The notes below the pieces were generated by a model. That model was not told the origin of the DNA, did no database searches, and saw only the letters and a program-made list of their open reading frames with translations. Below, piece after piece: positions 9,839-64,000 of a DNA stretch of 64,000 nucleotides. Source of the stretch: Trypanosoma brucei. Lineage: Eukaryota. Every line of letters begins with the position of its first letter. Position 1 is the first letter of the stretch. Position numbers and translations under genes: made by a program. The stretch lies in assembly GCA_000002445.1 (NCBI GenBank), contig CH464491.1:3008001-3072000 (forward strand), given 5' to 3'.

Positions 9839-11815
9839 ATGCCTGACAGCGAGGGTGCAGCTTCCATTCACGATGAGCGTCCTTCTGAAGTTCCAGAGGG
9901 CGGCTCTCCACTCGGTGAAGCAGCTATCACTTCAACGGCTAACGGCCATTCCAAGGTGAAGAGACGACGGATTCTTCAAAGGGAGATAGACAAATTCCGG
10001 CAGCAGAGTATTGAAAACGCGAAACAAACTGTAAGCAGAATAAAGGCGAGCGAAGTCGAGGTGAAGAGACGACGTGAACAGGATGCTGAGACGAGGGCAA
10101 AAAGGGCTGAAGATGTGAAGAAATCTTTGGAGGAGGAGCGTCTTTTTCTACAAAAGGTGCGTGAAAGGGAGGAGCAACGCAAGGTTGCCCAGGTTAAACT
10201 CCTTCGGACAAGCACTCCGCCACGCGAAGAGGTTAGAAGACGTATCGAGGAAGACCGCAGGAAAAACCGAGAGCGTGTACAAGCTGAGAGTGAGAAACTT
10301 CTGGCTGCTGCACGTGAGGAGGAGGAGAGGCGAATGGAGATGATCCTTAAGAGGAAGCAAGAGGAGGAGGAGGCCCCACGGAAACAGCGAAATGCTGAGC
10401 TGGAAAGGAAGGCAAAGGAGCTTGAGAACCTCAAGAAATCGTTGGAAAGGGACCGCCAGGCTATTCGGAAAGCACGTGAGGAGGAGGAGCGACGCAAAGC
10501 GCGGGAGGTGCGGATACTTCGCAGGATTGAAAAAGACTGGTGCGCGGAGGCTGTGAAAGAGTCTTTGGAGCATCGGCGAAAGATCAAAGAGCGTGTACAA
10601 GCTGAGAGTGAGAAACTTCTGGCTGCTGCACGTGAGGAGGAGGAGAGGCGAATGGAGATGATCCTTAAGAGGAAGCAAGGTGAGGAGGATGGCCCACGAC
10701 GGGTGCAAGAGTCTGAGCTTGAGAAGCAAAGGAAGGCAAAGGAGCTTGAGAACCTCAAGAAATCTTTGGAGGAGGAGCGTCTTTTTCTCAGAAAGATGCG
10801 CGAAGAGGAGGAGCAACGCAAGGTTGCCCAGGTTAAACTCCTTCGGACAAGCACTCCGCCACGCGAAGAGGTTAGAAGACGCATCGAGGAAGACCGCAGG
10901 AAAAACCGAGAGCGTGTACAAGCTGAGAGTGAGAAACTTCTGGCTGCTGCACGTGAGGAGGAGGAGAGGCGAAGGAAGATGATCCTTCAGAAAAAACAAG
11001 GGGAGGAGGAGGCCCCACGGAAACAGCGAAACGCTGAGCTGGAAAGGAAGGCAAAGGAGCTTGAGAACCTCAAGAAATCGTTGGAAAGGGACCGCCAGGC
11101 TATTCGGAAAGCACGTGAGGAGGAGGAGCAACGCAAGGTTGCCCAGGTTAAACTCCTTCGGACAAGCACTCCGCCACGCGAAGAGGTTAGAAGACGCATC
11201 GAGGAAGACCGCAGGAAAAACCGAGAGCGTGTACAAGCTGAGAGTGAGAAACTTCTGGCTGCTGCACGTGAGGCAGAGGAGAGGCGAATGGAGATGATCC
11301 TTAAGAGGAAGCAAGGTGAGGAGGATGGCCCACGACGGGTGCAAGAGTCTGAGCTTGAGAAGCAAAGGAAGGCAAAGGAGCTTGAGAACCTCAAGAGGCG
11401 TCTGGAGAAGGATCGTCTTGCCCTGCAGAAGATTCGTAAGGAGGACGACAGCGTTGACGAGACCGCATTGGCGGAGAATGGAATCGTGGAACTGCTTGAA
11501 GTCGCCCACGCTGTCGTCGAGGAAGGGGAAAAGGTTCTGCTGCAAAGAAAGCATACCACCAGGGAGGCCAGCACGCCGAGGCGCATGGAAGTGGAGAAGA
11601 AGAAAGCGAAGGCAGTGGAGGATATAAAGAAAGCCCTTGAGGAAGAGCGCTTGGCTCGGCAGAAGGAACGTGAGCAGGAGGTCCAACGCAAGGCGGAGCA
11701 GGTTCGACTGTTACGCGAGAAGATGAAGCAGCGACGCGAGGACCTGCTGAGGGCGCAGGAGGAAAAAAGGAAAAAGGCAGCTGAGGGCATTTGGGAGTTC
11801 GTGCCCGTTTCGTAG
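9839..11815 (+). CDS. Charged (E/K/R-rich) coiled-coil protein with internal tandem repeats
   Basis: 658-aa ORF. The motifs ERVQAESEKLLAAAREEEERRMEMILKRKQ, KAKELENLKKSLE and QRKVAQVKLLRTSTPPREEVRRRIEEDRRKNR recur four times. Confidence 0.7.
   Translation: MPDSEGAASIHDERPSEVPEGGSPLGEAAITSTANGHSKVKRRRILQREIDKFRQQSIENAKQTVSRIKASEVEVKRRREQDAETRAKRAEDVKKSLEEERLFLQKVREREEQRKVAQVKLLRTSTPPREEVRRRIEEDRRKNRERVQAESEKLLAAAREEEERRMEMILKRKQEEEEAPRKQRNAELERKAKELENLKKSLERDRQAIRKAREEEERRKAREVRILRRIEKDWCAEAVKESLEHRRKIKERVQAESEKLLAAAREEEERRMEMILKRKQGEEDGPRRVQESELEKQRKAKELENLKKSLEEERLFLRKMREEEEQRKVAQVKLLRTSTPPREEVRRRIEEDRRKNRERVQAESEKLLAAAREEEERRRKMILQKKQGEEEAPRKQRNAELERKAKELENLKKSLERDRQAIRKAREEEEQRKVAQVKLLRTSTPPREEVRRRIEEDRRKNRERVQAESEKLLAAAREAEERRMEMILKRKQGEEDGPRRVQESELEKQRKAKELENLKRRLEKDRLALQKIRKEDDSVDETALAENGIVELLEVAHAVVEEGEKVLLQRKHTTREASTPRRMEVEKKKAKAVEDIKKALEEERLARQKEREQEVQRKAEQVRLLREKMKQRREDLLRAQEEKRKKAAEGIWEFVPVS
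10130..11400 (+). repeat. Intragenic tandem repeat of about 4 units of 315-321 bp (~106 aa). Two alternating subtypes give a higher-order period of ~637 bp.
   Basis: The anchor agagcgtgtacaagctgagagtgagaaacttctggctgctgcacgtgagg recurs at 10270, 10588, 10909 and 11224. Confidence 0.75.
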
Positions 11816-36697: not shown

Positions 36698-37948
36698 TTG
36701 AGCACGATGACTGAAATGCTGAGCTGTTTGGTGCCGTACCTTGATAAGCACTTGGTACTTGGCCTCCTCTATTTTTACGATGATCAGGGTGTCGATGTGG
36801 GTGATGCCCTCCGATTCGTGCAGGCGACCACGGCGCTGACGCCGGAGGGTGAAGTGTCCCTCGAGCAGGAGAACAAAATTCGTGAGACCGCCGAGCGCGC
36901 TCGCCCAGCACTTGACATGTTTTTTGAGCAGAACGTTTCGGACAACTGCACATACCAGTTGTGCCTCACGGAGAGTCGGATTGACGAATTGCGAGGTAAA
37001 GGAGAGTTGTCTCGTGGTTTCCTTGAGAAGGAGGGTATTACCCCCAAGGTTATGACCGCCGTGATGGATTTGGCCTTTTTGTACTACGACGCGGCGCGGT
37101 ACGGGGACGCATCTGAACTACTTTCCTTGTTACAGTGTGTTACGGGATACGAGCTTGGCGAAAGCAAGTTACTATGGGGAAGGCTGGTGTGTGATACGTG
37201 CTCATGCAGATGGCCGTCTGCGATCGCGGCAGCGGAGAAACTGTGGAAACAGCAAGGTGCAGACGGGTCAGAGAACAAGTCAGGAAAGACAACACTCCGC
37301 GGCGACAATGGAACCTCCGTAACGGAGCGAGTGTGGTTGTTGCATTGGGCTCTCTTCCCGTTCTTCAAGGGTGGTAACCAGTACTCCACACATCTGTTGA
37401 ACATTGTCTTTGACAACAAGACGGATTCCATATACCAGTGTGTTGTAGAGACGGTGTGCCCACACTATCTGCGCTACATCTGCGCGGCTGCTATTCTCAA
37501 CACACACCGTCGCTCCGCCCTTCGTAGAGCTGCCGAGATGGTGGGAAGAATTTATGAATATTCCGACCCGCTCACGCAACTTGTGAGGGAAATCACGAAT
37601 TACCGCTCCTTCGAGGACACCCTTGAGCTACTGCCGAAGGTAAGCGAGCTGGCACAAGGTGACTATTTCCTCAATCTGCACGCTGATAATTTGGTCGAGA
37701 ACGCGAAGCGGCTTATTTTCACCCAGTATGTGGTAACCCACAGTGTAGTGTCAATACCATACATGGCGGAAAGGCTAGAAATGAGTGCGGCAGGGGCCGA
37801 GGTGTGGCTAGCTGATCTCATCAGCGAGACAAAGCAGCGTGCAAAGATCGATGCCGTAACAGGTCAAATGTTTGTTGGCTCGCAGGTTCGTTCCGTCCAT
37901 CAAACGGTGCTTGACAGGTTGGAGCCGGTTGACCACGGTCGGCGCTGA
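36698..37948 (+). CDS. EIF3E: Translation initiation factor eIF3 subunit E (INT6-like, PCI domain)
   Basis: The N-terminus LVPYLDKHLVLGLLYFYDDQG matches the eIF3e N-terminal signature (compare DRHLVFPLLEFL). The C-terminal PCI/winged-helix region has IFTQYVVTHSVVSIPYMAERLEMS. The 416-aa length is appropriate. Confidence 0.7.
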   Translation: MSTMTEMLSCLVPYLDKHLVLGLLYFYDDQGVDVGDALRFVQATTALTPEGEVSLEQENKIRETAERARPALDMFFEQNVSDNCTYQLCLTESRIDELRGKGELSRGFLEKEGITPKVMTAVMDLAFLYYDAARYGDASELLSLLQCVTGYELGESKLLWGRLVCDTCSCRWPSAIAAAEKLWKQQGADGSENKSGKTTLRGDNGTSVTERVWLLHWALFPFFKGGNQYSTHLLNIVFDNKTDSIYQCVVETVCPHYLRYICAAAILNTHRRSALRRAAEMVGRIYEYSDPLTQLVREITNYRSFEDTLELLPKVSELAQGDYFLNLHADNLVENAKRLIFTQYVVTHSVVSIPYMAERLEMSAAGAEVWLADLISETKQRAKIDAVTGQMFVGSQVRSVHQTVLDRLEPVDHGRR

Positions 37949-38854
37949 TAGAATGGAAAAAGTAGGGGAGCCATGAAGCCGCGTTCAGTGAAGGTTGCGC
38001 GCCGAGGCTACGGTGAGATCGATTCGTGTGCTTGAGGTTTTTCCTTCCGCAAGCAGCGCAAAGGATTATGAGCAGTGGGGGATCGAATATTGTTCGTTCA
38101 GTAATAAAGCGTGAAAGGGAAGGAGGGTGCGAGTGTGTGGAGAATGCGAAAATGGGCATGGGATTATTGAATGGGATATTACGAGTTACCGTCACGTAAA
38201 CGGACATGAGGTGTAAGTGGTGTAGCTTTATACATTGTTGGGGTCCCCCTTTTTAATGTGTTTCTGCATTTCCTACATTTTGGGTGCGTGGGGCTCAGTC
38301 CCATTGGAAACGCAGTTTTGTGGTGAGGATGTTGTTGTTGTGGAGCGCTGCTCCCTTTTGTAAGAACGACACAAGGCTGGTTGTCACTTTCTCCACTGTT
38401 AGGATAGTTGCCTTACTTTCATTTCGGACGGCCTCTTTCGTTAACTTCCCTCTTTCAAGCAATCCTTACACGTATGTTCAAATTCCACCGTTAGCGGGAG
38501 AAGAGTAAGGAAAAAGTTACTTTTTAAATACTCACACATCCAAATAAGAGGGTGAGGTTTTGCATTTGTGTGTTTGCGCGTAAGTGTATGTGCCCACTGG
38601 CATGCAAATGATAGGCCTCCTCCCTGGGGTATGAGGTGCGGGGGATGGAAATGTTTTCTCTGGAGCTGCGACCTCGTCCATGTAGTTTTCTCTCATTTCC
38701 TTCCTAACGGTCTTATCTCCTCCAAAAGGCAAGCGTAAGTTGCCGAGGGGCTCATATTAGATTAGTGACCAATATACTTGTGTCCAAGTTTAGACCTATA
38801 GGAAGTCCTCGCGGGTAACGGGACGCACTGAATAGGTGAACACCACAAAATAAG

Positions 38855-41800
38855 ATGCTTTCAGTTTACAAACCGCGCTTTCTTACGGGAGAAAAGGGAC
38901 GTGGAGACGGACGGGGAGGAAAACACGGAAGGCAAACTTTACTGGGTCCACCGTCCCGGGGAGCCGTATGGCCAGCAGTTGCAGGAGGGGGAGCATGGCC
39001 CATAGCTGCACCGGTGCACCTCAGCCCACTTCCTGTGCCGGTGGCAACGTCGCATTGGGCGCTCTCCGGCTGTCGATTGCCGGCTACCATTCCGACAGGG
39101 AAGCGTTTGATTGGGTCCTGTGTCAATGAGATGAGCAACCTCAACGATTCTGAGAAAGCGATATGTGAGCTCATGGTTGGCTTTTTGGAGCACAAATCTG
39201 CAACTGAGGCCGAGTGTATCATGTCGGAGGTGGACGAAATGGTTTGTTCCCGTCGCTTGCTCTCACAGTACAGTGGTGTGTACGCTAGTAAATGCCCCGG
39301 TGACGCAAATGGAGGGAAAGACGAACCGTTGCGTGGAAAAACTCAGCTTATTCGCTTCCTTCGGCAGCAGCAAGAGGAAAAGGAGGAGCGGGAGAAGAAC
39401 TGGGAGCAGAGGCGGCGCCAGCGCATCGCCAGGGAAGCAGCGGAGAGAAGAGAATCACGAGAGAGGTGGAAGAAAATGTTTCTGCACAACGTAGAGGGAA
39501 AAAGCAAAAGGGAAGCCCTTCCAAAAACAGCTAAGAGAAAGGCACAAATTGGAAGGTGTATCGACAAAGAAGCTGCCAATATAAAACACAAACAACGACG
39601 GTGTGAAGACGAGGACTTTAGATTAACATCTCTAAGCGATTCCACTTTCACTGACTCTTTATGCGGCTACCCACAACATGTGCCGAACGTGGCAAGGCCC
39701 ATCAGAGTGCCAGCTGCAACCGAGCGATTCGCTAATGCAAGCGAAAAACTCACTAGGGAGGTGGCAGGTGCGCAATATATACGAGTCCCAAGGGAAATGC
39801 CGACAAGCATACGCGTCGCTTCTTCTGACAGCGAGAATACGGAAGATATTATCGAAAAAACAGATAAGTTGGTGGGGGACAGGTTAGAGGTGTTCAAACA
39901 ACGGCAAAACACAAACGACACGAGATCCAAAGAATCATTTATTGCAGCAATTCAGAAAAGTTATAGCGCACAGGGTGATGAAAGACCACTCACGACAACA
40001 GAAAACCAGCAGCAAATGACAAAAAAAGATAATCAACTGAGAAGCACAGAAGTGGAGAAAAAAACCCAGGACCCAACATCAATTACAGCTACCATCCGAT
40101 ACACCAAACAGGAGGATGACATCAAAAATAAACAAAACGCCATTTCAGAAAGAGGACTCAGTACATCAACGAACCAAAAACAAACAGAAACATTAATTAC
40201 TTCTAACAATCAACATTCAGTTGATGAGCGCCACCAATCAGACGATCGACAGCACTCCAAACGTTCTGAATCCAAGAAGGAGTTGCAGGAATCATTGCAT
40301 TCCAACAAGTCTGCAGTGAAGGATGGTGAACCTGAACTTGAGGCTTCTCAAGGTTCGAAGAAGTCACAGCGGTCCCGTGAGTCTATTCGTGAGGGTTTTG
40401 CTGATGATTTGCAATCACAGGGTTCTCAACATTCTAAACGTTCTGAATCCAAGAAGGAGTTGCAGGAATCACTACATTCCAACAAGTCTGCAGTGAAGGA
40501 TGGTGAACCTGAACTTGAGGCTTCTCAAGGTTCGAAGAAGTCACAGCGGTCCCGTGAGTCTATTCGTGAAGGTCTTGCTGATGATTTGCAATCACAGGGT
40601 TCTCAACATTCTAAACGTTCTGAATCCAAGAAGGAGTTGCAGGAATCACTACATTCCAACAAGTCTGCAGTGAAGGATGGTGAACCTGAACTTGAGGCTT
40701 CTCAAGGTTCGAAGAAGTCACAGCGGTCCCGTGAGTCTATTCGTGAGGGTTTTGTTGATGATTTGCAATCACAGGGTTCTCAACATTCTAAACGTTCTGA
40801 ATCCAAGAAGGAGTTGCAGGAATCACTACATTCCAACAAGTCTGCAGTGAAGGATGGTGAACCTGAACTTGAGGCTTCTCAAGGTTCGAAGAAGTCACAG
40901 CGGTCCCGTGAGTCTATTCGTGAAGGTCTTGCTGATGATTTGCAATCACAGGGTTCTCAACATTCTAAACGTTCTGAATCCAAGAAGGAGTTGCAGGAAT
41001 CACTACATTCCAACAAGTCTGCAGTGAAGGATGGTGAACCTGAACTTGAGGCTTCTCAAGGTTCGAAGAAGTCACAGCGGTCCCGTGAGTCTATTCGTGA
41101 GGGTTTTGCTGATGATTTGCAATCACAGGGTTCTCAACATTCTAAACGTTCTGAATCCAAGAAGGAGTTGCAGGAATCACTACATTCCAACAAGTCTGCA
41201 GTGAAGGATGGTGAACCTGAACTTGAGGCTTCTCAAGGTTCGAAGAAGTCACAGCGGTCCCGTGAGTCTATTCGTGAGGGTCTTGCTGATGATTTGCAAT
41301 CACAGGGTTCTCAACATTCTAAACGTTCTGAATCCAAGAAGGAGTTGCAGGAATCACTACATTCCAACAAGTCTGCAGTGAAGGATGGTGAACCTGAACT
41401 TGAGGCTTCTCAAGGTTCGAAGAAGTCACAGCGGTCCCGTGAGTCTATTCGTGAGGGTTTTGTTGATGATTTGCAATCACAGGGTTCTCAACATTCTAAA
41501 CGTTCTGAATCCAAGAAGGAGTTGCAGGAATCATTGCATTCCAACAAGTCTGCAGTGAAGGATGGTGAACCTGAACTTGAGGCTTCTCAAGGTTCGAAGA
41601 AGTCACAGCGGTCCCGTGAGTCTATTCGTGAGGGTTTTGTTGATGATTTGCAATCACAGGGTTCTCAACATTCTAAACGTTCTGAATCCAAGAAGGAGTT
41701 GCAGGAATCATTGCATTCCAACAAGTCTGCAGTGAAGGATGGTGAACCTGAACTTGAGGCTTCTCAAGGTTCGAAGAAGTCACAGCGGTCCCGTGAGTCT

Positions 41801-44800
41801 ATTCGTGAGGGTTTTGTTGATGATTTGCAATCACAGGGTTCTCAACATTCTAAACGTTCTGAATCCAAGAAGGAGTTGCAGGAATCACTACATTCCAACA
41901 AGTCTGCAGTGAAGGATGGTGAACCTGAACTTGAGGCTTCTCAAGGTTCGAAGAAGTCACAGCGGTCCCGTGAGTCTATTCGTGAGGGTTTTGTTGATGA
42001 TTTGCAATCACAGGGTTCTCAACATTCTAAACGTTCTGAATCCAAGAAGGAGTTGCAGGAATCATTGCATTCCAACAAGTCTGCAGTGAAGGATGGTGAA
42101 CCTGAACTTGAGGCTTCTCAAGGTTCGAAGAAGTCACAGCGGTCCCGTGAGTCTATTCGTGAGGGTTTTGTTGATGATTTGCAATCACAGGGTTCTCAAC
42201 ATTCTAAACGTTCTGAATCCAAGAAGGAGTTGCAGGAATCATTGCATTCCAACAAGTCTGCAGTGAAGGATGGTGAACCTGAACTTGAGGCTTCTCAAGG
42301 TTCGAAGAAGTCACAGCGGTCCCGTGAGTCTATTCGTGAGGGTTTTGTTGATGATTTGCAATCACAGGGTTCTCAACATTCTAAACGTTCTGAATCCAAG
42401 AAGGAGTTGCAGGAATCACTACATTCCAACAAGTCTGCAGTGAAGGATGGTGAACCTGAACTTGAGGCTTCTCAAGGTTCGAAGAAGTCACAGCGGTCCC
42501 GTGAGTCTATTCGTGAAGGTCTTGCTGATGATTTGCAATCACAGGGTTCTCAACATTCTAAACGTTCTGAATCCAAGAAGGAGTTGCAGGAATCATTGCA
42601 TTCCAACAAGTCTGCAGTGAAGGATGGTGAACCTGAACTTGAGGCTTCTCAAGGTTCGAAGAAGTCACAGCGGTCCCGTGAGTCTATTCGTGAGGGTTTT
42701 GTTGATGATTTGCAATCACAGGGTTCTCAACATTCTAAACGTTCTGAATCCAAGAAGGAGTTGCAGGAATCACTACATTCCAACAAGTCTGCAGTGAAGG
42801 ATGGTGAACCTGAACTTGAGGCTTCTCAAGGTTCGAAGAAGTCACAGCGGTCCCGTGAGTCTATTCGTGAGGGTTTTGTTGATGATTTGCAATCACAGGG
42901 TTCTCAACATTCTAAACGTTCTGAATCCAAGAAGGAGTTGCAGGAATCATTGCATTCCAACAAGTCTGCAGTGAAGGATGGTGAACCTGAACTTGAGGCT
43001 TCTCAAGGTTCGAAGAAGTCACAGCGGTCCCGTGAGTCTATTCGTGAGGGTTTTGTTGATGATTTGCAATCACAGGGTTCTCAACATTCTAAACGTTCTG
43101 AATCCAAGAAGGAGTTGCAGGAATCACTACATTCCAACAAGTCTGCAGTGAAGGATGGTGAACCTGAACTTGAGGCTTCTCAAGGTTCGAAGAAGTCACA
43201 GCGGTCCCGTGAGTCTATTCGTGAGGGTTTTGTTGATGATTTGCAATCACAGGGTTCTCAACATTCTAAACGTTCTGAATCCAAGAAGGAGTTGCAGGAA
43301 TCACTACATTCCAACAAGTCTGCAGTGAAGGATGGTGAACCTGAACTTGAGGCTTCTCAAGGTTCGAAGAAGTCACAGCGGTCCCGTGAGTCTATTCGTG
43401 AAGGTCTTGCTGATGATTTGCAATCACAGGGTTCTCAACATTCTAAACGTTCTGAATCCAAGAAGGAGTTGCAGGAATCACTACATTCCAACAAGTCTGC
43501 AGTGAAGGATGGTGAACCTGAACTTGAGGCTTCTCAAGGTTCGAAGAAGTCACAGCGGTCCCGTGAGTCTATTCGTGAGGGTTTTGTTGATGATTTGCAA
43601 TCACAGGGTTCTCAACATTCTAAACGTTCTGAATCCAAGAAGGAGTTGCAGGAATCATTGCATTCCAACAAGTCTGCAGTGAAGGATGGTGAACCTGAAC
43701 TTGAGGCTTCTCAAGGTTCGAAGAAGTCACAGCGGTCCCGTGAGTCTATTCGTGAGGGTTTTGTTGATGATTTGCAATCACAGGGTTCTCAACATTCTAA
43801 ACGTTCTGAATCCAAGAAGGAGTTGCAGGAATCACTACATTCCAACAAGTCTGCAGTGAAGGATGGTGAACCTGAACTTGAGGCTTCTCAAGGTTCGAAG
43901 AAGTCACAGCGGTCCCGTGAGTCTATTCGTGAAGGTCTTGCTGATGATTTGCAATCACAGGGTTCTCAACATTCTAAACGTTCTGAATCCAAGAAGGAGT
44001 TGCAGGAATCACTACATTCCAACAAGTCTGCAGTGAAGGATGGTGAACCTGAACTTGAGGCTTCTCAAGGTTCGAAGAAGTCACAGCGGTCCCGTGAGTC
44101 TATTCGTGAGGGTTTTGTTGATGATTTGCAATCACAGGGTTCTCAACATTCTAAACGTTCTGAATCCAAGAAGGAGTTGCAGGAATCATTGCATTCCAAC
44201 AAGTCTGCAGTGAAGGATGGTGAACCTGAACTTGAGGCTTCTCAAGGTTCGAAGAAGTCACAGCGGTCCCGTGAGTCTATTCGTGAGGGTTTTGTTGATG
44301 ATTTGCAATCACAGGGTTCTCAACATTCTAAACGTTCTGAATCCAAGAAGGAGTTGCAGGAATCATTGCATTCCAACAAGTCTGCAGTGAAGGATGGTGA
44401 ACCTGAACTTGAGGCTTCTCAAGGTTCGAAGAAGTCACAGCGGTCCCGTGAGTCTATTCGTGAGGGTTTTGTTGATGATTTGCAATCACAGGGTTCTCAA
44501 CATTCTAAACGTTCTGAGTCCAAGAAGGAGTTGCAGGAATCACTACATTCCAACAAGTCTGCAGTGATGACTAATGGCTTCTCTGTTGATGTTAGGAATT
44601 CTGGTGGTTGTCGACAGGAAAAGAACTTTTCGGATTGTGTTGGACCGTTGTTTTCCTCGAGGTCGCATTTGTCTGTTCACATGGATACACGTGGTGATGT
44701 TGATGTTTCTCCTCCTTTTCATGATATTTCTAGTGCTGGTGCTGGTGCTGAAGCTCCGCTGTCAATGGGACAGTCTGTTTCTTCTTTAGATGCTTTACCG

Positions 44801-44833
44801 ATGCCGGAGTTTGTTGGGCCGCTTAAAGGTTAA
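38855..44833 (+). CDS. Large repeat protein of 1992 aa. It has a unique basic/acidic N-terminal region of ~460 aa, then 24 tandem 59-aa repeats, then a unique C-terminal ~90 aa. An alternative start is at 39131 (MSNLNDSEKA).
   Basis: Uninterrupted ORF through the repeat array. The unit is QSQGSQHSKRSESKKELQESLHSNKSAVKDGEPELEASQGSKKSQRSRESIREGF(A/V)DDL. Confidence 0.75.
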   Translation: MLSVYKPRFLTGEKGRGDGRGGKHGRQTLLGPPSRGAVWPAVAGGGAWPIAAPVHLSPLPVPVATSHWALSGCRLPATIPTGKRLIGSCVNEMSNLNDSEKAICELMVGFLEHKSATEAECIMSEVDEMVCSRRLLSQYSGVYASKCPGDANGGKDEPLRGKTQLIRFLRQQQEEKEEREKNWEQRRRQRIAREAAERRESRERWKKMFLHNVEGKSKREALPKTAKRKAQIGRCIDKEAANIKHKQRRCEDEDFRLTSLSDSTFTDSLCGYPQHVPNVARPIRVPAATERFANASEKLTREVAGAQYIRVPREMPTSIRVASSDSENTEDIIEKTDKLVGDRLEVFKQRQNTNDTRSKESFIAAIQKSYSAQGDERPLTTTENQQQMTKKDNQLRSTEVEKKTQDPTSITATIRYTKQEDDIKNKQNAISERGLSTSTNQKQTETLITSNNQHSVDERHQSDDRQHSKRSESKKELQESLHSNKSAVKDGEPELEASQGSKKSQRSRESIREGFADDLQSQGSQHSKRSESKKELQESLHSNKSAVKDGEPELEASQGSKKSQRSRESIREGLADDLQSQGSQHSKRSESKKELQESLHSNKSAVKDGEPELEASQGSKKSQRSRESIREGFVDDLQSQGSQHSKRSESKKELQESLHSNKSAVKDGEPELEASQGSKKSQRSRESIREGLADDLQSQGSQHSKRSESKKELQESLHSNKSAVKDGEPELEASQGSKKSQRSRESIREGFADDLQSQGSQHSKRSESKKELQESLHSNKSAVKDGEPELEASQGSKKSQRSRESIREGLADDLQSQGSQHSKRSESKKELQESLHSNKSAVKDGEPELEASQGSKKSQRSRESIREGFVDDLQSQGSQHSKRSESKKELQESLHSNKSAVKDGEPELEASQGSKKSQRSRESIREGFVDDLQSQGSQHSKRSESKKELQESLHSNKSAVKDGEPELEASQGSKKSQRSRESIREGFVDDLQSQGSQHSKRSESKKELQESLHSNKSAVKDGEPELEASQGSKKSQRSRESIREGFVDDLQSQGSQHSKRSESKKELQESLHSNKSAVKDGEPELEASQGSKKSQRSRESIREGFVDDLQSQGSQHSKRSESKKELQESLHSNKSAVKDGEPELEASQGSKKSQRSRESIREGFVDDLQSQGSQHSKRSESKKELQESLHSNKSAVKDGEPELEASQGSKKSQRSRESIREGLADDLQSQGSQHSKRSESKKELQESLHSNKSAVKDGEPELEASQGSKKSQRSRESIREGFVDDLQSQGSQHSKRSESKKELQESLHSNKSAVKDGEPELEASQGSKKSQRSRESIREGFVDDLQSQGSQHSKRSESKKELQESLHSNKSAVKDGEPELEASQGSKKSQRSRESIREGFVDDLQSQGSQHSKRSESKKELQESLHSNKSAVKDGEPELEASQGSKKSQRSRESIREGFVDDLQSQGSQHSKRSESKKELQESLHSNKSAVKDGEPELEASQGSKKSQRSRESIREGLADDLQSQGSQHSKRSESKKELQESLHSNKSAVKDGEPELEASQGSKKSQRSRESIREGFVDDLQSQGSQHSKRSESKKELQESLHSNKSAVKDGEPELEASQGSKKSQRSRESIREGFVDDLQSQGSQHSKRSESKKELQESLHSNKSAVKDGEPELEASQGSKKSQRSRESIREGLADDLQSQGSQHSKRSESKKELQESLHSNKSAVKDGEPELEASQGSKKSQRSRESIREGFVDDLQSQGSQHSKRSESKKELQESLHSNKSAVKDGEPELEASQGSKKSQRSRESIREGFVDDLQSQGSQHSKRSESKKELQESLHSNKSAVKDGEPELEASQGSKKSQRSRESIREGFVDDLQSQGSQHSKRSESKKELQESLHSNKSAVMTNGFSVDVRNSGGCRQEKNFSDCVGPLFSSRSHLSVHMDTRGDVDVSPPFHDISSAGAGAEAPLSMGQSVSSLDALPMPEFVGPLKG
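40253..44567 (+). repeat. Perfect-to-near-perfect tandem array of 24.4 units of 177 bp (59 codons, in frame), inside the CDS
   Basis: The anchors cactccaaacgttctgaatccaagaagg at 40253 and cattctaaacgttctgaatccaagaagg at 40430 give a period of 177. The few variant sites (ttt/ctt, gct/gtt, cta/ttg) define three unit subtypes. Confidence 0.95.
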
Positions 44834-45647: not shown

Positions 45648-47366
45648 ATGTTTAAACGCACCCGAGGTGAAGATGAAGTAGTTGAGGTGTACGCAACTCT
45701 ACTACGGCAGAGTGGGGCTCGTGCCATTGAGCGTATACGTCAGCGACGTGGCAGCGGTACCAACAGCGTCATGCCGATTGATGCCCTCGTCATTCGTTAC
45801 GCTATGTGGTTTCTTGATACGTCCGCGTTCCCCGCTGTCAGTTATGTAACGCAAGCGCAGCGGGTCGTGACGGAGGCGATTGAGCGCGTTTCGTACCCAC
45901 AACATTTCAGTTTTATTCCACTTTCGACGCTTGTGGAATGTCTTGTGTCAGAGAACACAGCAGAGGTTATGCAACAGACAGTCGTCTCCATTGAAGAATT
46001 TATTGATGCTCGAGATGCGTTGGGAAGGTGGATTGACGAAAATATTGGTAACGCAGGCGGGGAACGGTACGAACGATACAACCATTACAGCGGCGGCGAA
46101 AAAGATGAAGAGGCTGAGATTGCTCTTGAGCGGGCGGGCATACTGTGGCGCAGTGCGTTGTACTGGGTGGCGGTATTTGAATACATTGAGGCCCTCTCGC
46201 TCAGCAGTGCTAAGGTAAATGTCTTCGCATTACGACCCAGGTATGAACAGGAGTTAATGAATCTGCTCAACTCTATTGCAGCACCCAAAGACTCGGTGTA
46301 CTGGAAACGGCAACAGGGTGTGAATGCCCCTACCGACAATCTTTCGATGCTGCCATTAAGCGCGAGTGCCACTACCCGTGACGGTGGCGAAATAGCTGAT
46401 AGCTCAACCGAAGGAGAGGACACGGAGAGGATGCAAGCAGACGGCGGTGACAACACTTCGTCTCGTGCAACAGAGCCGACTACGGCAACAAAGGAGGCGG
46501 ATCCTAATGAGGTTGGTAGTGACGCCACTGATGGGATTGGCAAGCTTTTGGTCGATCTTATAGCACTTGTGAACTGTCCTTCTGAGACCCCTGGGTCTGG
46601 TACTAGAATAAACCCAATGTTTTACACCATGGTTCATGCACGGCTGAATGTTATTGCGGCCTGTGAACGCCTTAACCGCTTTGGTAGCTCTGCGCGTGTC
46701 GCTCCCCCGCCGCTCACCGCGTCATTGCAGTCGCTTCAATCTCAGCGTGAGGCTCTCAATGCTGGTCGGCATCGGCGTGATGCTCACTTAGAAACCAGTG
46801 GGGAAATTGGACTTCCGTTGGATTTTGTGCCAAGTGAGGCGTACCTGCGGGCGGCACTGGAGAGGGAAAATATCACGCTTGAGGAGGACGAGGAGCTTTT
46901 CAAGGATGAGATTGTAGACTACTATAAGCGTCAGCAACAGCATCAACATGCCCCACCACGCGATAGGAGTGGCCCAAAGGAGCCCACCGTCTTGATGAAA
47001 CCGCATCGTTTCTGCAAGGTGAAGACAGGCTACACATGGACTCAGTACAATCGCACGCATTATGATGTACGCTCGAATCCCCCACCCCGAAGTGTGCTGT
47101 GGTATGAGTTTACCCTTTTTTACCCGGCACTCGCTAGCACGAAACGCGACATGAGCCGAATCTACCACATTGAAGACACATCCAGAGGATCCAAGGATGA
47201 TTACTGTGTGTTGGTGTTCTCAGTGGGGCCACCGTATGCGGATGTGGCCTATCAAATTGTTCGAAAGCAGTGGGACCCACGCCCGGGAGGGGTTCGCGCA
47301 AGTTTTGACAGCAGCGGTACTTATCGGCTTTTCTTCCGCTTTACCAACAGCAATTATCGACGGTAG
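45648..47366 (+). CDS. Cactin homolog (spliceosome-associated protein). Only the conserved C-terminal domain is recognisable.
   Basis: The C-terminus FCKVKTGYTWTQYNRTHYDVRSNPPPRSVLWYEFTLFYPAL matches the cactin C-terminal signature (KTGYEWNKYNQTHYD..NPPPK.VQGYKFNIFYPDL). Confidence 0.7.
   Translation: MFKRTRGEDEVVEVYATLLRQSGARAIERIRQRRGSGTNSVMPIDALVIRYAMWFLDTSAFPAVSYVTQAQRVVTEAIERVSYPQHFSFIPLSTLVECLVSENTAEVMQQTVVSIEEFIDARDALGRWIDENIGNAGGERYERYNHYSGGEKDEEAEIALERAGILWRSALYWVAVFEYIEALSLSSAKVNVFALRPRYEQELMNLLNSIAAPKDSVYWKRQQGVNAPTDNLSMLPLSASATTRDGGEIADSSTEGEDTERMQADGGDNTSSRATEPTTATKEADPNEVGSDATDGIGKLLVDLIALVNCPSETPGSGTRINPMFYTMVHARLNVIAACERLNRFGSSARVAPPPLTASLQSLQSQREALNAGRHRRDAHLETSGEIGLPLDFVPSEAYLRAALERENITLEEDEELFKDEIVDYYKRQQQHQHAPPRDRSGPKEPTVLMKPHRFCKVKTGYTWTQYNRTHYDVRSNPPPRSVLWYEFTLFYPALASTKRDMSRIYHIEDTSRGSKDDYCVLVFSVGPPYADVAYQIVRKQWDPRPGGVRASFDSSGTYRLFFRFTNSNYRR

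Positions 47367-50871: not shown

Positions 50872-50903
<32 letters not shown>
50872..50903. repeat. (TA)16 microsatellite
   Basis: atatatatatatatatatatatatatatatat, located immediately upstream of the MCM gene. Confidence 0.95.
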
Positions 50904-60856: not shown

Positions 60857-62008
60857 ATGCTCCGTCGTTTGGCCACTCATGGACTCCAAGCTACGTGCCT
60901 GACTTCGGAGAAGTTGGCGTACCGCTACTGCCTCAGCATTTGTGTCCCCACTATTGCCGAGTCCATCAGCAGTGGGAAGGTTGTGGGATGGACTAAGAAG
61001 GTTGGTGACGCTGTTGCCGAAGATGAGATTATTTGTCAAATTGAGTCGGACAAACTCAATGTGGATGTACGCGCCCCTGCCGCGGGTGTGATCACGAAGA
61101 TAAACTTCGAAGAGGGCACTGTTGTCGATGTTGGCGCCGAGCTTTCAACCATGAAGGAAGGTGAGGCCCCCGCCGCCAAGGCCGAAACAGCCGACAAACC
61201 GAAGCAGAATGCACCGGCGGCGGCAGCACCTCCCAAAGCTTCCCCAACTGAAGCCGCGCCAAAGCCAGCGCCCGCGGCTGCTCCCGTCACCTCACGTGGG
61301 GCGGACCCGCGCGTACGTAGCGTTCGCATCTCCTCCATGCGGCAGCGCATTGCGGATCGGCTGAAGGCAAGCCAGAACACGTGTGCCATGCTCACGACAT
61401 TCAACGAGATTGATATGACCCCTCTTATCGAGTTGCGCAATCGTTACAAGGATGATTTCTTCAAGAAGAACGGGGTGAAACTTGGATTCATGTCGCCATT
61501 CGTGAAGGCCTGTGCTATTGCACTTCAGGACGTTCCTATTGTCAACGCATCCTTCGGCACTGACTGCATCGAATACCACGACTACGTGGACATCAGTGTT
61601 GCCGTATCCACACCGAAAGGTCTTGTTGTGCCGGTCCTTCGTGACGTGCAGAACTCCAACTTTGCCCAAATTGAAAAGCAAATCGCAGACTTTGGTGAGC
61701 GCGCCCGCTCGAACAAGCTGACCATGGCGGAGATGACCGGTGGCACATTCACTATTAGCAACGGCGGCGTGTTTGGCTCGTGGATGGGGACACCTATCGT
61801 CAACCCACCACAGAGCGCTATTCTTGGTATGCACGCCACGAAGAAGAAGCCGTGGGTTGTGGGCAACTCCGTCGTCCCGCGTGACATAATGGCGGTTGCC
61901 CTCACGTACGATCACCGTCTCATCGACGGCAGTGACGCCGTAACATTTCTCGTTAAGGTGAAGAACCTCATTGAGGATCCCGCACGTATTGTGCTCGACC
62001 TCGCCTAA
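60857..62008 (+). CDS. Dihydrolipoamide succinyltransferase, the E2 component of 2-oxoglutarate dehydrogenase. The ORF opens at 60833; a mitochondrial presequence follows the ATG at 60857.
   Basis: - Single lipoyl domain with lipoyl-lysine in IESDKLNVDV.
- Ala/Pro-rich linker.
- 2-oxoacid dehydrogenase acyltransferase catalytic domain: ISNGGVFGSWMGTPIVNPPQSAILGMHA ... YDHRLIDGSDA. Confidence 0.85.
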   Translation: MLRRLATHGLQATCLTSEKLAYRYCLSICVPTIAESISSGKVVGWTKKVGDAVAEDEIICQIESDKLNVDVRAPAAGVITKINFEEGTVVDVGAELSTMKEGEAPAAKAETADKPKQNAPAAAAPPKASPTEAAPKPAPAAAPVTSRGADPRVRSVRISSMRQRIADRLKASQNTCAMLTTFNEIDMTPLIELRNRYKDDFFKKNGVKLGFMSPFVKACAIALQDVPIVNASFGTDCIEYHDYVDISVAVSTPKGLVVPVLRDVQNSNFAQIEKQIADFGERARSNKLTMAEMTGGTFTISNGGVFGSWMGTPIVNPPQSAILGMHATKKKPWVVGNSVVPRDIMAVALTYDHRLIDGSDAVTFLVKVKNLIEDPARIVLDLA

Positions 62009-64000
62009 ATTGACGCACTTTGTTTGGATAAGGTAAATAAGCAAAGGCATTTTCTTCTCCCCCCCCTATTGTTGTTGTTACTAATATGAATGGGGCGGTG
62101 GCGGTGGCGGGAGGAATTAAGGGGTATAAACTCAAGTGCGTGCACACGCCGGTGTGTCTGCAATGGAAGAGGAGAGAAAATAAATAAAATGAAATCAGAA
62201 GAATGATCACTGACACTCGTGAAGGTGATGTGTGTTTCAACATCGAGTGACCCAACGAACTATTTTATTTGTTGTTTTATTTTTCCCCGATACGATAGCG
62301 GTTTCTTATTTTAGTTTTACTTTACTTCAAATTCTTACTCTCTCTCTCTGTGGGTGTGTGTGTTTTTTACGAATGAGCGAATAGGGAGGAGGAGGAGGCG
62401 GGTGAAAGTTAGTGTAAGCAAGCAACAGCAAGAAAGAAATTTGGTTACACGGAGAACAACAGCACCAAAATAAAGACGTAACGATACTTTAAAAAAAAAA
62501 GAAAGGGAAGAAATTATTTAATTCCGATCGGGGGAAAAGAGGGAGGGAGGGAGGGGAGGGGGTGACAAGGTTAAGTAAGGGTGTAGCAGCACTTTATTTG
62601 TTGTGTATGTTTTAATATTCACATGAGCGCAAACGACGGGATATGTAGCAATTTTCTTTGAATAATAAAAAAAAAAGAGTGACCGCCATTTCCTCCTCCT
62701 CCTCCTGCCGCATCAATGAACGGATACGGGATGGGATATACGGTTTTTATTTATTTATTTTTTGGAGTACCTTTTTTTCTTTTTTCTTTGGTTTCTTTTT
62801 CCATCCTAAATATATATATATATATTTTTTGTATCGCTGGTGTTTCTTTCATCTGTTATCACTTCCCTCACCCACGACCCTCTGTTTCTTTTTTTTTGGT
62901 CCTTTCCGTGTCTGCAGCTGGGAACGAAAAGTAAAAAAACAAAACAAAAAGAAAGAAAGAAAGAGGAATGGATTGCGATGAACCGAAGGCTGCGGAGGAG
63001 TTGGGGCGGGTAGTGGAATGCGATTGGTAAAAGAAGATAATAAAATAAAAAAAAGAAAATATGAAACAAAACGAAGAAATGGAGAAAAATGCGGAATGAT
63101 GACTGCGGGGGTGGGGGCGCGTGCGTTCGTATGAGTTTCGTAACAGAACGAACTGAAAAACTAAGCAGAAAAAAGGAGGAGTAAATCAAAATGAGGAAGA
63201 AAAAAAATAATAACGCAGGATGGGGGGGGGGTGCAATGGGAAGGGGAAGAGTTTGACGCTGTGGAAGAAGAGGATCTCTTTTTCTTATTTTACGCCTTTG
63301 TTTTTTTTTCTTTTTTATCTTTCCGATTTTGTTACCTATCTCTTTTCAGTTTTTATTTCAGTTCACGTTTGGTTTTCCCCTTTGTTTATTTTTTTATTTT
63401 TTTCGTCTCGTGCGTCAAGCTGTGGTGGATTACCCGTCTGCTCGTTTTTATCCATTTTCCTTCCTCTTTTGCGTTTTCAGTGTTTCTGTTTCTGTTTTTT
63501 TTGTTTTTTTTCTCTTCGTGTTTTCCTCCTATTCCTCAATTACACGTGTTATCACTTCTTTACATGAAATTATTTCGTTTTTCTTTTCTCATTTTTTAAA
63601 AATCTTATTTCGGTGTGTTATTGTTTCGTTCTCCCTCTGTTATTTTCCTGTACATAACACTTGAAAAGACAAGTCACAGCGTGAAGGGGAGCAAAGAGCG
63701 AATTCAAGGGGGAAACTGAAACTTAAAAAAAAAGACAAAGAAAAGAAAAGGGAGAGGTGGCGAAGGTTGGGTAATATAAGGCGTTCGTTCCCACCTTTGA
63801 TGAGATAAGTTCACTTCCTCCTCAACATATTCCATTTTTCTGCGGATGCCAGTACATGACTCATTTCCTTTCTTTTTTACTTTAATTCCCACTTCTTGTG
63901 CCATATGTCATGATGTAACTTTGTTTCACCTGCGTGTCACCCTTTAAAATACATAAATAGGTTTACCCACATAAATAAGAGATACGCACCAAATGGGCGG

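Follow-up and report, generated by a model that had tools for sequence, protein, structure and literature searches.

Unit variants and their order in a 24-unit coding minisatellite of a hypothetical gene of Trypanosoma brucei

Human hypervariable minisatellites are composed of interspersed unit variants, show polar variation along the array and can be read as variant-repeat (MVR) maps, and alpha-satellite is an example of higher-order repeats in satellite DNA. In T. brucei, the BRC array of BRCA2 is a recent, T. brucei-specific expansion whose copy number varies between alleles and strains, and variant-repeat mapping has been applied in this organism (PMC2408642). That study also had to verify that the array had been compiled correctly, and it counted 2 repeats in T. 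congolense TREU1457 where the IL3000 genome predicted 3 (PMC2408642). Concerted evolution has been proposed for low-complexity repeat proteins of trypanosomatids (Trypanosoma and Leishmania; PMC13309793), and is also described for tandem gene arrays of T. brucei (PMC1855330).

Here we analysed a tandem array in a 64,000-nt stretch of T. brucei chromosome 11 (the window). Tandem Repeats Finder returned a single array at 40259-44567, with a period of 177, 24.3 copies, 98% matches, 0% indels and a score of 8338. Units were counted from position 40253, the register used in the first-pass annotation of this DNA, and in this register the array claimed there at 40253-44567 is present with 24 full 177-bp units and a partial unit of 67 bp (Table 1). 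Its existence is far beyond chance. The features of a coding minisatellite were all found, i.e. a unit of 177 = 3 x 59 nt, head-to-tail arrangement, one open frame and 0% indels; the coding frame contains 0 stops over 4315 nt and the remaining five frames contain 25 to 217 stops each. The window has no N and the array no indels, and no degenerate founder units were found in either flank, where DNA and protein local alignments scored no better than shuffles. The array is an ordinary protein-coding tandem repeat, or minisatellite, in an uncharacterised T. brucei gene.

Table 1. Positions of the array, its gene and its internal duplications in the window
Feature	Position	Strand	Basis
Array-carrying ORF, 1992 codons	38855..44833	+	open reading frame; chromosome-11 polycistron
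Polypyrimidine tract then AG, candidate spliced-leader acceptor region	38660..38730	+	read from sequence
Conserved N-terminal region, including long charged helix	39140..39484	+	invariant columns L96 to F209 of the ORF
Full 177-bp (59-residue) units, n = 24, all in frame	40253..44500	+	TRF and unit extraction
Partial unit 25, 67 bp; array stops abruptly mid-unit	44501..44567	+	unit extraction
5' zone, units 1-6, FA LA FV LA FA LA	40253..41314	+	subtype calls, permutation test
3-unit tandem duplication (cFV tFV tFV) x2, units 7-12	41287..42516	+	exact 531-bp periodicity over 1230 bp
2-unit tandem duplication (tFV cFV) x2, units 14-17	42554..43261	+	exact match
3-unit tandem duplication (LA cFV tFV) x2, units 18-23	43130..44365	+	exact 531-bp periodicity over 1236 bp

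The neighbours of the array gene are eIF3e (Tb927.11.11590) and cactin (Tb927.11.11610), and interpolation between these numbers would make it Tb927.11.11600, a hypothetical protein. The polypyrimidine tract upstream of the first ATG is likely its spliced-leader acceptor region. In T. b. gambiense DAL972 the ortholog (P0001) is 95% identical and has the same annotated start, and orthologs in four other Trypanosoma species (T. grayi, T. melophagium, T. cruzi marinkellei and T. rangeli) are 436-550 aa long, have only the N-terminal region in common with it and carry no array. An exhaustive HMMER scan matched only five Trypanosoma hypothetical proteins, no Pfam match at E <= 0.01 was obtained for the N-terminal region, the repeat unit or the C-terminus, and the gene index holds no record of the exact window protein. 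In a single-sequence AlphaFold2 model, whose mean pLDDT of 53.6 is too low for a fold search, a helix is predicted at residues 66-124 counted from the ATG at 39131 (block-mean pLDDT 90-97 over 71-120), and block-mean pLDDT is mostly below 55 in the repeat part. The unit itself is very hydrophilic, with 13 Ser, 8 Glu, 7 Lys and 6 Gln per 59 residues. Main texts of the literature gave no matches for Tb927.11.11600 or for the guessed old identifier Tb11.01.3470, and the gene was found neither in the accessible part of the supplement of PMC13309793 nor among the entries listed in the accessible part of the TrypTag supplement of PMC9981465, the place to look for a flagellar or cytoskeletal localisation, a lead taken from PMC13309793 for repeat proteins of trypanosomes.

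Compared with the BRC array of BRCA2, the array described here is likewise T. brucei-specific, recent and in frame, and is built of a near-identical unit (132 bp for BRC, 177 bp here; PMC2408642). Both lie in a conserved gene that in other trypanosomes contains the unit in few copies or not at all, both differ in copy number between subspecies and have a divergent edge unit, and for both a count taken from genome sequence calls for independent checking. In contrast, the BRC unit binds RAD51, whereas the 59-residue unit matches no known domain, and allele-level variation was measured for the BRCA2 array. It also resembles the repeat proteins for which concerted evolution was proposed in having large near-perfect repeats in a lineage-restricted protein (PMC13309793).

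Seven of the 177 unit positions are variable, with five synonymous changes and two conservative replacements (F/L and V/A). The FA, LA and FV subtypes and the synonymous Leu codon switch named in the first-pass annotation were all recovered, both by motif count and by unit extraction: within the array GGTTTTGCT occurs 2 times, GGTCTTGCT 6 times and GGTTTTGTT 16 times, and the Leu-codon motifs TCATTGCAT and TCACTACAT occur 10 and 15 times, partial unit included. That annotation had missed a third synonymous site at unit position 141 (GAG/GAA), which is A in five of the six LA units and G elsewhere (5 A and 19 G among 24), as well as two private synonymous changes of unit 1, at its positions 3 and 6. 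At site 43, 14 units have C and the other 10 have T. Altogether six full haplotypes were distinguished, TGGTT in nine units, CAGTT in seven, CAACC in five, and three singletons. Within the window, sites 43 and 149 are found in every one of the four possible combinations, and so are sites 145 and 149 when the window and the gambiense genome are taken together, which points to conversion or recurrent mutation. Moreover, sites 43, 45, 141, 145 and 149 are variable in both genomes; since the same five positions vary among the units of an independent T. b. gambiense assembly, the variants are real.

Extraction of all 24 units reproduced the order reported before exactly, i.e. FA LA FV LA FA LA FV FV FV FV FV FV LA FV FV FV FV LA FV FV LA FV FV FV. 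The non-randomness of this order is only marginal, as the order statistics all lie at p 0.03-0.05, some of the tests were post hoc and the sample is 24 units. Ala-type units are concentrated in units 1-6 (p = 0.034, best-split test, permutation-corrected), and this 5' zone is heterogeneous, containing all three singleton haplotypes and an LA unit at every even position. Polarity of this kind is a better-supported signal than block duplication of 4 units. Exact multi-unit duplications in the array are restricted to two of 3 units and one of 2 units: units 7-12 contain a 699-bp exact repeat at a 3-unit shift, with 0 mismatches between blocks, and units 18-23 contain a 705-bp exact repeat at the same shift. 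The two 3-unit duplications have a p of about 0.05 for the whole array and of 0.13 within units 7-24, lag-3 autocorrelation is not significant over the whole array (p = 0.2), and the 2-unit duplication of units 14-17 is expected by chance (p = 0.65). The exact duplication of 3-unit (531 bp) blocks at two places is reminiscent of the higher-order repeats of alpha-satellite, but here there is no array-wide periodicity, each block has two copies only, and identity between blocks is not systematically above that between neighbouring units.

The array of T. b. gambiense DAL972, a capillary draft, has 16 units, compared with the 24 full units in the window. The DAL972 gene also has a 1-bp deletion at the place that corresponds to 39896 of the window, which, if real, would mean that gambiense has lost the protein. 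The first-pass annotation had proposed a comparison of subtype order with other strains or species. DAL972 has the order LA-FV-LA-FA-LA of units 2-6 in the same register (p about 0.03), and unit 5 is of the rare FA type in either array; this test of polarity has one comparator array, and synonymous sites differ within units 2-6 themselves. Because the order of units 2-6 recurs in gambiense, the 5' block is probably old and not a recent duplication. Unit 1 has a private signature (3C/6C/TTG) that is common to the window, DAL972 and T. equiperdum OVI, and the 3' part of the array, which is dominated by FV, differs between the window and DAL972. With a few interspersed variants, one end that seems stable across lineages while the remainder turns over, and an order usable as a lineage marker, the array is similar to MVR-mapped minisatellites; it differs from them in being coding, constrained to multiples of three nucleotides and composed of a long unit, and its polarity comes from a single comparison.

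All 16 gambiense units carry 43T and 141A, whereas the window has mixed 43C/43T and mostly 141G. Judged from these bases, the lineage-specific states read as a signature of concerted evolution, at two sites only, and as in other systems of concerted evolution the units are closer within than between genomes at sites 43 and 141. If units 2-6 are positional orthologs, homogenisation of sites 43 and 141 must have left sites 145 and 149 untouched. The latter lie only 4-8 bp from site 141, which is awkward for a conversion model.

The explanation that we regard as probable is that the array, a coding minisatellite of a hypothetical gene specific to Trypanosoma, evolves by unequal exchange and by conversion and is polar, with an older 5' edge. 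The array would have been born after the split from the non-salivarian trypanosomes, whose orthologs have no array. By exchange or repair out of register, involving sister chromatids or alleles, it would then gain and lose one to few units at a time, and short-tract conversion would act between units. The 5' edge (units 1-6) would be the older part, heterogeneous and with its subtype order kept across subspecies, and the remaining units would turn over, so that two synonymous FV versions, occasional LA units and small duplications of 2-3 units now prevail here. The hydrophilic segment is probably largely disordered or loosely helical, and such a segment would tolerate changes of copy number.

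In the first-pass annotation the order was instead explained by duplication of FA-LA-FV-LA blocks of about 4 units (~708 bp), together with amplification of single FV units, which we now consider very unlikely. At the level of the three subtypes FA-LA-FV does occur at units 1-3 and again at units 5-7, and the probability of finding LA and then FV after each of the two FA units is about 0.028 in a post hoc test, but no significant matching at lag 4 was seen for coarse subtypes, full haplotypes or sites (p = 0.19-0.34), the leading block and its supposed reiteration (units 1-4 and 5-8) differ at 10 sites, the best adjacent pair of 4-unit blocks anywhere in the array still has 6 mismatches, and the array has no exact 4-unit tandem duplication. 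Moreover, the subtype order of units 2-6 is shared with gambiense, whose unit 1 is LA, hence the pattern is older than the split of the two subspecies and did not arise by recent reiteration. The FV runs named there are not one amplified FV type but a mixture of two FV haplotypes (A and B), which with the Leu codon included read BAABAA / ABAB / BA / BAA. In these runs TTG and CTA versions alternate, and of the 23 pairs of adjacent units no more than 3 are identical, so amplification of single units does not describe them. An order without any structure, in which frequent exchange scattered the subtypes essentially at random and the patterns are post hoc, would account for the absence of significant autocorrelation at lags 1-12 (permutation tests at haplotype and site level), for a runs test and an LA-unit spacing test that both stay within permutation expectation, and for the p-values of the 3-unit duplications given above. 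We think this rather unlikely, as the clustering of Ala-type units survives correction for the choice of split point, the gambiense array matches over five units in the same register down to the rare FA unit, and the signature of unit 1 is kept in three genomes.

It is a real possibility, if a minor one, that the order is at least partly a product of assembly, arising from collapsed or expanded 3-unit blocks or from a mosaic of two alleles, and is unreliable as history. Two stretches of 1230 and 1236 bp have exact 531-bp periodicity, and reads shorter than these cannot count the blocks inside them. In the T. b. brucei 927 reference, chromosome 11 comes from shotgun sequencing that drew on the two homologues together, and the DAL972 genome is a capillary draft at 8x (PMC2854126). 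The OVI contigs of T. equiperdum stop at the array, with breaks within unit 1 and 28 bp ahead of the final partial unit, and the BRCA2 array sets a precedent for repeat counts that needed checking (PMC2408642). Against this stand the variation of the same five positions in an independent genome, which makes the variant sites real, the freedom of the window from N and of the array from indels, the recurrence of the 5' order in DAL972, and the unique overlaps that haplotype order provides outside the two periodic stretches. Unit order in either assembly may be partly wrong.

One further proposal is that LA-FV-LA-FA-LA at the 5' end was kept, despite synonymous homogenisation 4-8 bp away, by selection or by short-tract polar conversion. 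We hold this to be highly improbable; if true, it would mean selection on a position-specific F/L and V/A pattern, or highly polar conversion with very short tracts in T. brucei arrays, neither of which would amount to neutral drift of a minisatellite. In general, the array matters little beyond its own locus and opens no long-standing question. It adds a further example of T. brucei-specific expansion of near-perfect coding repeats in a conserved hypothetical protein, its variant map could serve as a marker of T. brucei strains or alleles, like other variant-repeat maps, and it makes a useful check on the quality of assemblies, since those built from short reads break there.

A word-indexed search for array fragments of other strains returned none, and it also missed the gambiense ortholog, with low-complexity words probably swamping the search. 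By look-up, the neighbouring eIF3e and cactin proteins were matched elsewhere only in DAL972 and T. equiperdum OVI, and the TrypTag primer 80-mers for cactin do not differ between the window, DAL972 and OVI.

Within its ORF the 177-bp array is in frame: over 4315 nt the coding frame holds no stop and the remaining five frames hold 25-217. The array, the motif counts and the order of FA, LA and FV units (named by the residues at sites 145 and 149) claimed in the first-pass annotation were all reproduced exactly. Sites 3 and 6 vary in unit 1 only; the other variable sites are 43 and 45 (Leu, TTG or CTA), 145 (TTT or CTT, F/L), 149 (GTT or GCT, V/A) and 141 (Glu, GAG or GAA), the last of which had been overlooked and carries A in five of the six LA units and G in all others. 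Over sites 43, 45, 141, 145 and 149 we defined haplotypes A (TGGTT, 9 units), B (CAGTT, 7 units), C (CAACC, 5 units), D (TGGTC, unit 1), E (CAGTC, unit 5) and F (CAGCC, unit 6), which follow each other as D C B C E F B A A B A A C A B A B C B A C B A A. Haplotypes B-E-F-C form a chain of one-mutation steps leading from FV to LA; its two intermediates, E and F, lie next to each other in the array, at units 5 and 6.

Features of the array locus and of other parts of the window (window coordinates)
Feature	Position	Details
In-frame tandem repeat	10168-11396	period 315 bp (105 aa), 3.9 copies, 78% identity, 4% indels; inside ORF 9839-11815 (+)
eIF3e-like PCI protein	36707-37948	neighbour of repeat gene
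ORF of repeat gene	38855-44833 (+)	
Charged helix QLIRFLRQQQEEKEEREKNWEQRRRQRIAREAAERRESRERWKKMF, predicted	39326-39502	residues 66-124 from ATG 39131
Array, first-pass register	40253-44500	24 full units, then 67-bp partial unit
Array, Tandem Repeats Finder	40259-44567	single array, period 177, 24.3 copies, 98% matches, 0 indels
Cactin	45648-47366	neighbour of repeat gene
(AT)16 microsatellite	50872-50903	perfect, between ORFs
Low-GC stretch	62001-64000	GC 0.386 vs ~0.5 elsewhere
21-bp A-rich repeat	63029-63079	within low-GC stretch

The observed order was compared with shuffled unit orders. Autocorrelation was never significant at lags 1-8 for haplotypes or lags 1-12 for single sites (p = 0.19-0.34 at lag 4), and the run count and the spacing of LA units match chance expectation. 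Ala-type (149C) units make up 5/6 of units 1-6 and 3/18 of the last 18; this polarity (nominal p 0.007, and 0.034 once the choice of split point is corrected) is the sole order signal surviving correction. Block duplication of ∼4 units (708 bp) had also been suggested, but besides the missing lag-4 signal, there are 10 differences in 708 sites between the leading two 4-unit blocks, the fewest differences in any adjacent 4-unit pair of the whole array are 6, and no exact 4-unit tandem duplication occurs in it. The data give no support to a higher-order repeat of four units. Exact duplications are shorter: two of three units, BAA BAA (units 7-12) and CBA CBA (units 18-23), which account for the longest exact repeats inside the array (699 and 705 bp, each at a 531-bp shift), and one of two units, AB AB (units 14-17). 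When the whole array is shuffled, two 3-unit duplications arise in 5% of cases, and when units 7-24 alone are shuffled, in 13%; as a signal of order they are only suggestive. Because identical neighbours are found in only 3 of 23 pairs, if anything below expectation (P = 0.135), single-unit amplification of FV is a poor description, and the FV runs do not consist of identical units.

In the T. b. gambiense DAL972 genome the array has 16 units, LA LA FV LA FA LA LA FV FV LV LV LV FV FV FV LA. Its variable positions are the same five as in the window, which excludes random sequencing error as the source of the variants; the subtypes are real. Units 2-6 (LA FV LA FA LA) stand in the same register in both arrays, including the rare FA at unit 5; with both arrays shuffled, a same-register run of at least five units has a probability of ∼0.03. 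Moreover, the private 3C/6C/TTG signature of unit 1 is common to the window, DAL972 and T. equiperdum OVI. Given this shared order and signature, the 5′ block would most simply be old, and a recent reiteration of the leading block is disfavoured. From unit 7 onward the two arrays are unlike in length and content, save for coincidental FV matches, and the fourth subtype, LV, occurs in gambiense only. All 16 gambiense units carry 43T and 141A, with Leu codons TTA or TTG, whereas the window has CTA or TTG and mostly G at site 141. TTG, TTA and CTA at unit positions 43-45 form a synonymous mutational series of three, whose one-step intermediate, TTA, is present in gambiense and in 0 of 24 window units. 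Such lineage-specific synonymous states, as read from the two arrays, point to concerted evolution.

We therefore regard the earlier observation as confirmed and its interpretation as borne out only in part. The array is an ordinary coding minisatellite, probably shaped by unequal exchange and conversion, with a conserved, probably old 5′ edge, a 3′ part that is unlike between the two genomes, and local duplications that are small, of two to three units at most. The structure is of a known kind; the gene has not been individually described in the literature searched.

Were units 2-6 positional orthologs, homogenisation would have reached site 141 yet left sites 145 and 149, only 4-8 bp away, undisturbed. 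Candidate explanations, any of which could suffice, are recurrent mutation, conversion tracts of very short length, selection acting on the amino-acid pattern and imperfect assemblies. In gambiense, adjacent identical pairs form significant runs (7/15, P = 0.014, vs 3/23 in the window), units 8-15 reading FV FV, LV x3, FV x3; either turnover dynamics differ or the draft assembly smoothed the repeats. DAL972 is an 8x capillary draft, and in the T. b. brucei 927 reference both homologues contributed to the shotgun sequence of chromosome 11 (PMC2854126). DAL972 also has a single-base deletion (FN554974.1) opposite window 39896: the deposited ORF stops after 394 aa, the array goes on in another frame, and RefSeq labels the product LOW QUALITY PROTEIN. 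Either the deletion is a sequencing error, or T. b. gambiense has truly lost the protein. The T. equiperdum OVI assembly lacks the array, CZPT02001543.1 ending at its 3′ side 140 bases into unit 1 and CZPT02001856.1 beginning 28 bases ahead of the last partial unit. Two exactly periodic window stretches (1230 and 1236 bp) are uncountable by shorter reads. The unit variants are solid; their order and the copy number of the 3-unit blocks stand as assembled only. The same concern arose for the T. brucei BRCA2 array and was settled there by variant-repeat PCR and cloning (PMC2408642).

Leaving aside those nested within longer + strand ORFs, all ORFs of at least 200 aa in the window are on the + strand. 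Tb927.11.11590 is T. brucei eIF3e (PMC4320536) and Tb927.11.11610 is cactin (PMC8682746); from its place between them we infer that the repeat gene is Tb927.11.11600, which is named nowhere in the literature searched. Its best protein match, a hypothetical protein of T. b. gambiense DAL972 (95% identity), sits on chromosome 11 (FN554974.1, ∼3.08 Mb), and alignments running from either flank into the array are ∼99% identical to DAL972. The window thus belongs to T. brucei sensu lato, though it is not from DAL972 itself. Pfam contains no family matching the protein. When 1.84 billion representative proteins were scanned exhaustively with HMMER, the only hits were DAL972 and four hypothetical proteins, from T. 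grayi (500 aa), T. melophagium (550 aa), T. cruzi marinkellei (436 aa) and T. rangeli (436 aa), all four of which lack the 59-residue repeat and share an N-terminal region, its invariant columns running from L96 to F209 of the ORF. Neither flank of the array contains a detectable degenerate founder unit.

Each 59-residue unit contains 13 Ser, 8 Glu, 7 Lys and 6 Gln (GRAVY -1.59). In a single-sequence AlphaFold2 model the long, highly charged N-terminal helix, possibly a coiled coil or a single alpha-helix, is the sole confident element; the repeats appear as short helices with coil between, mostly at block-mean pLDDT <55. Judging by this composition and the low-pLDDT model, the repeat segment is probably hydrophilic and flexible, a spacer or a multivalent stretch that is free to vary in length. 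An enrichment for flagellar proteins has been reported among the low-complexity repeat proteins of trypanosomatids (PMC13309793).

Elsewhere in the window, the 315-bp repeat is an older, decayed array, in contrast to the 98% identical 177-bp array. The (AT)16 microsatellite is a potential genotyping marker, and the low-GC stretch with its A-rich repeat could represent a strand-switch region or a long stretch between genes.
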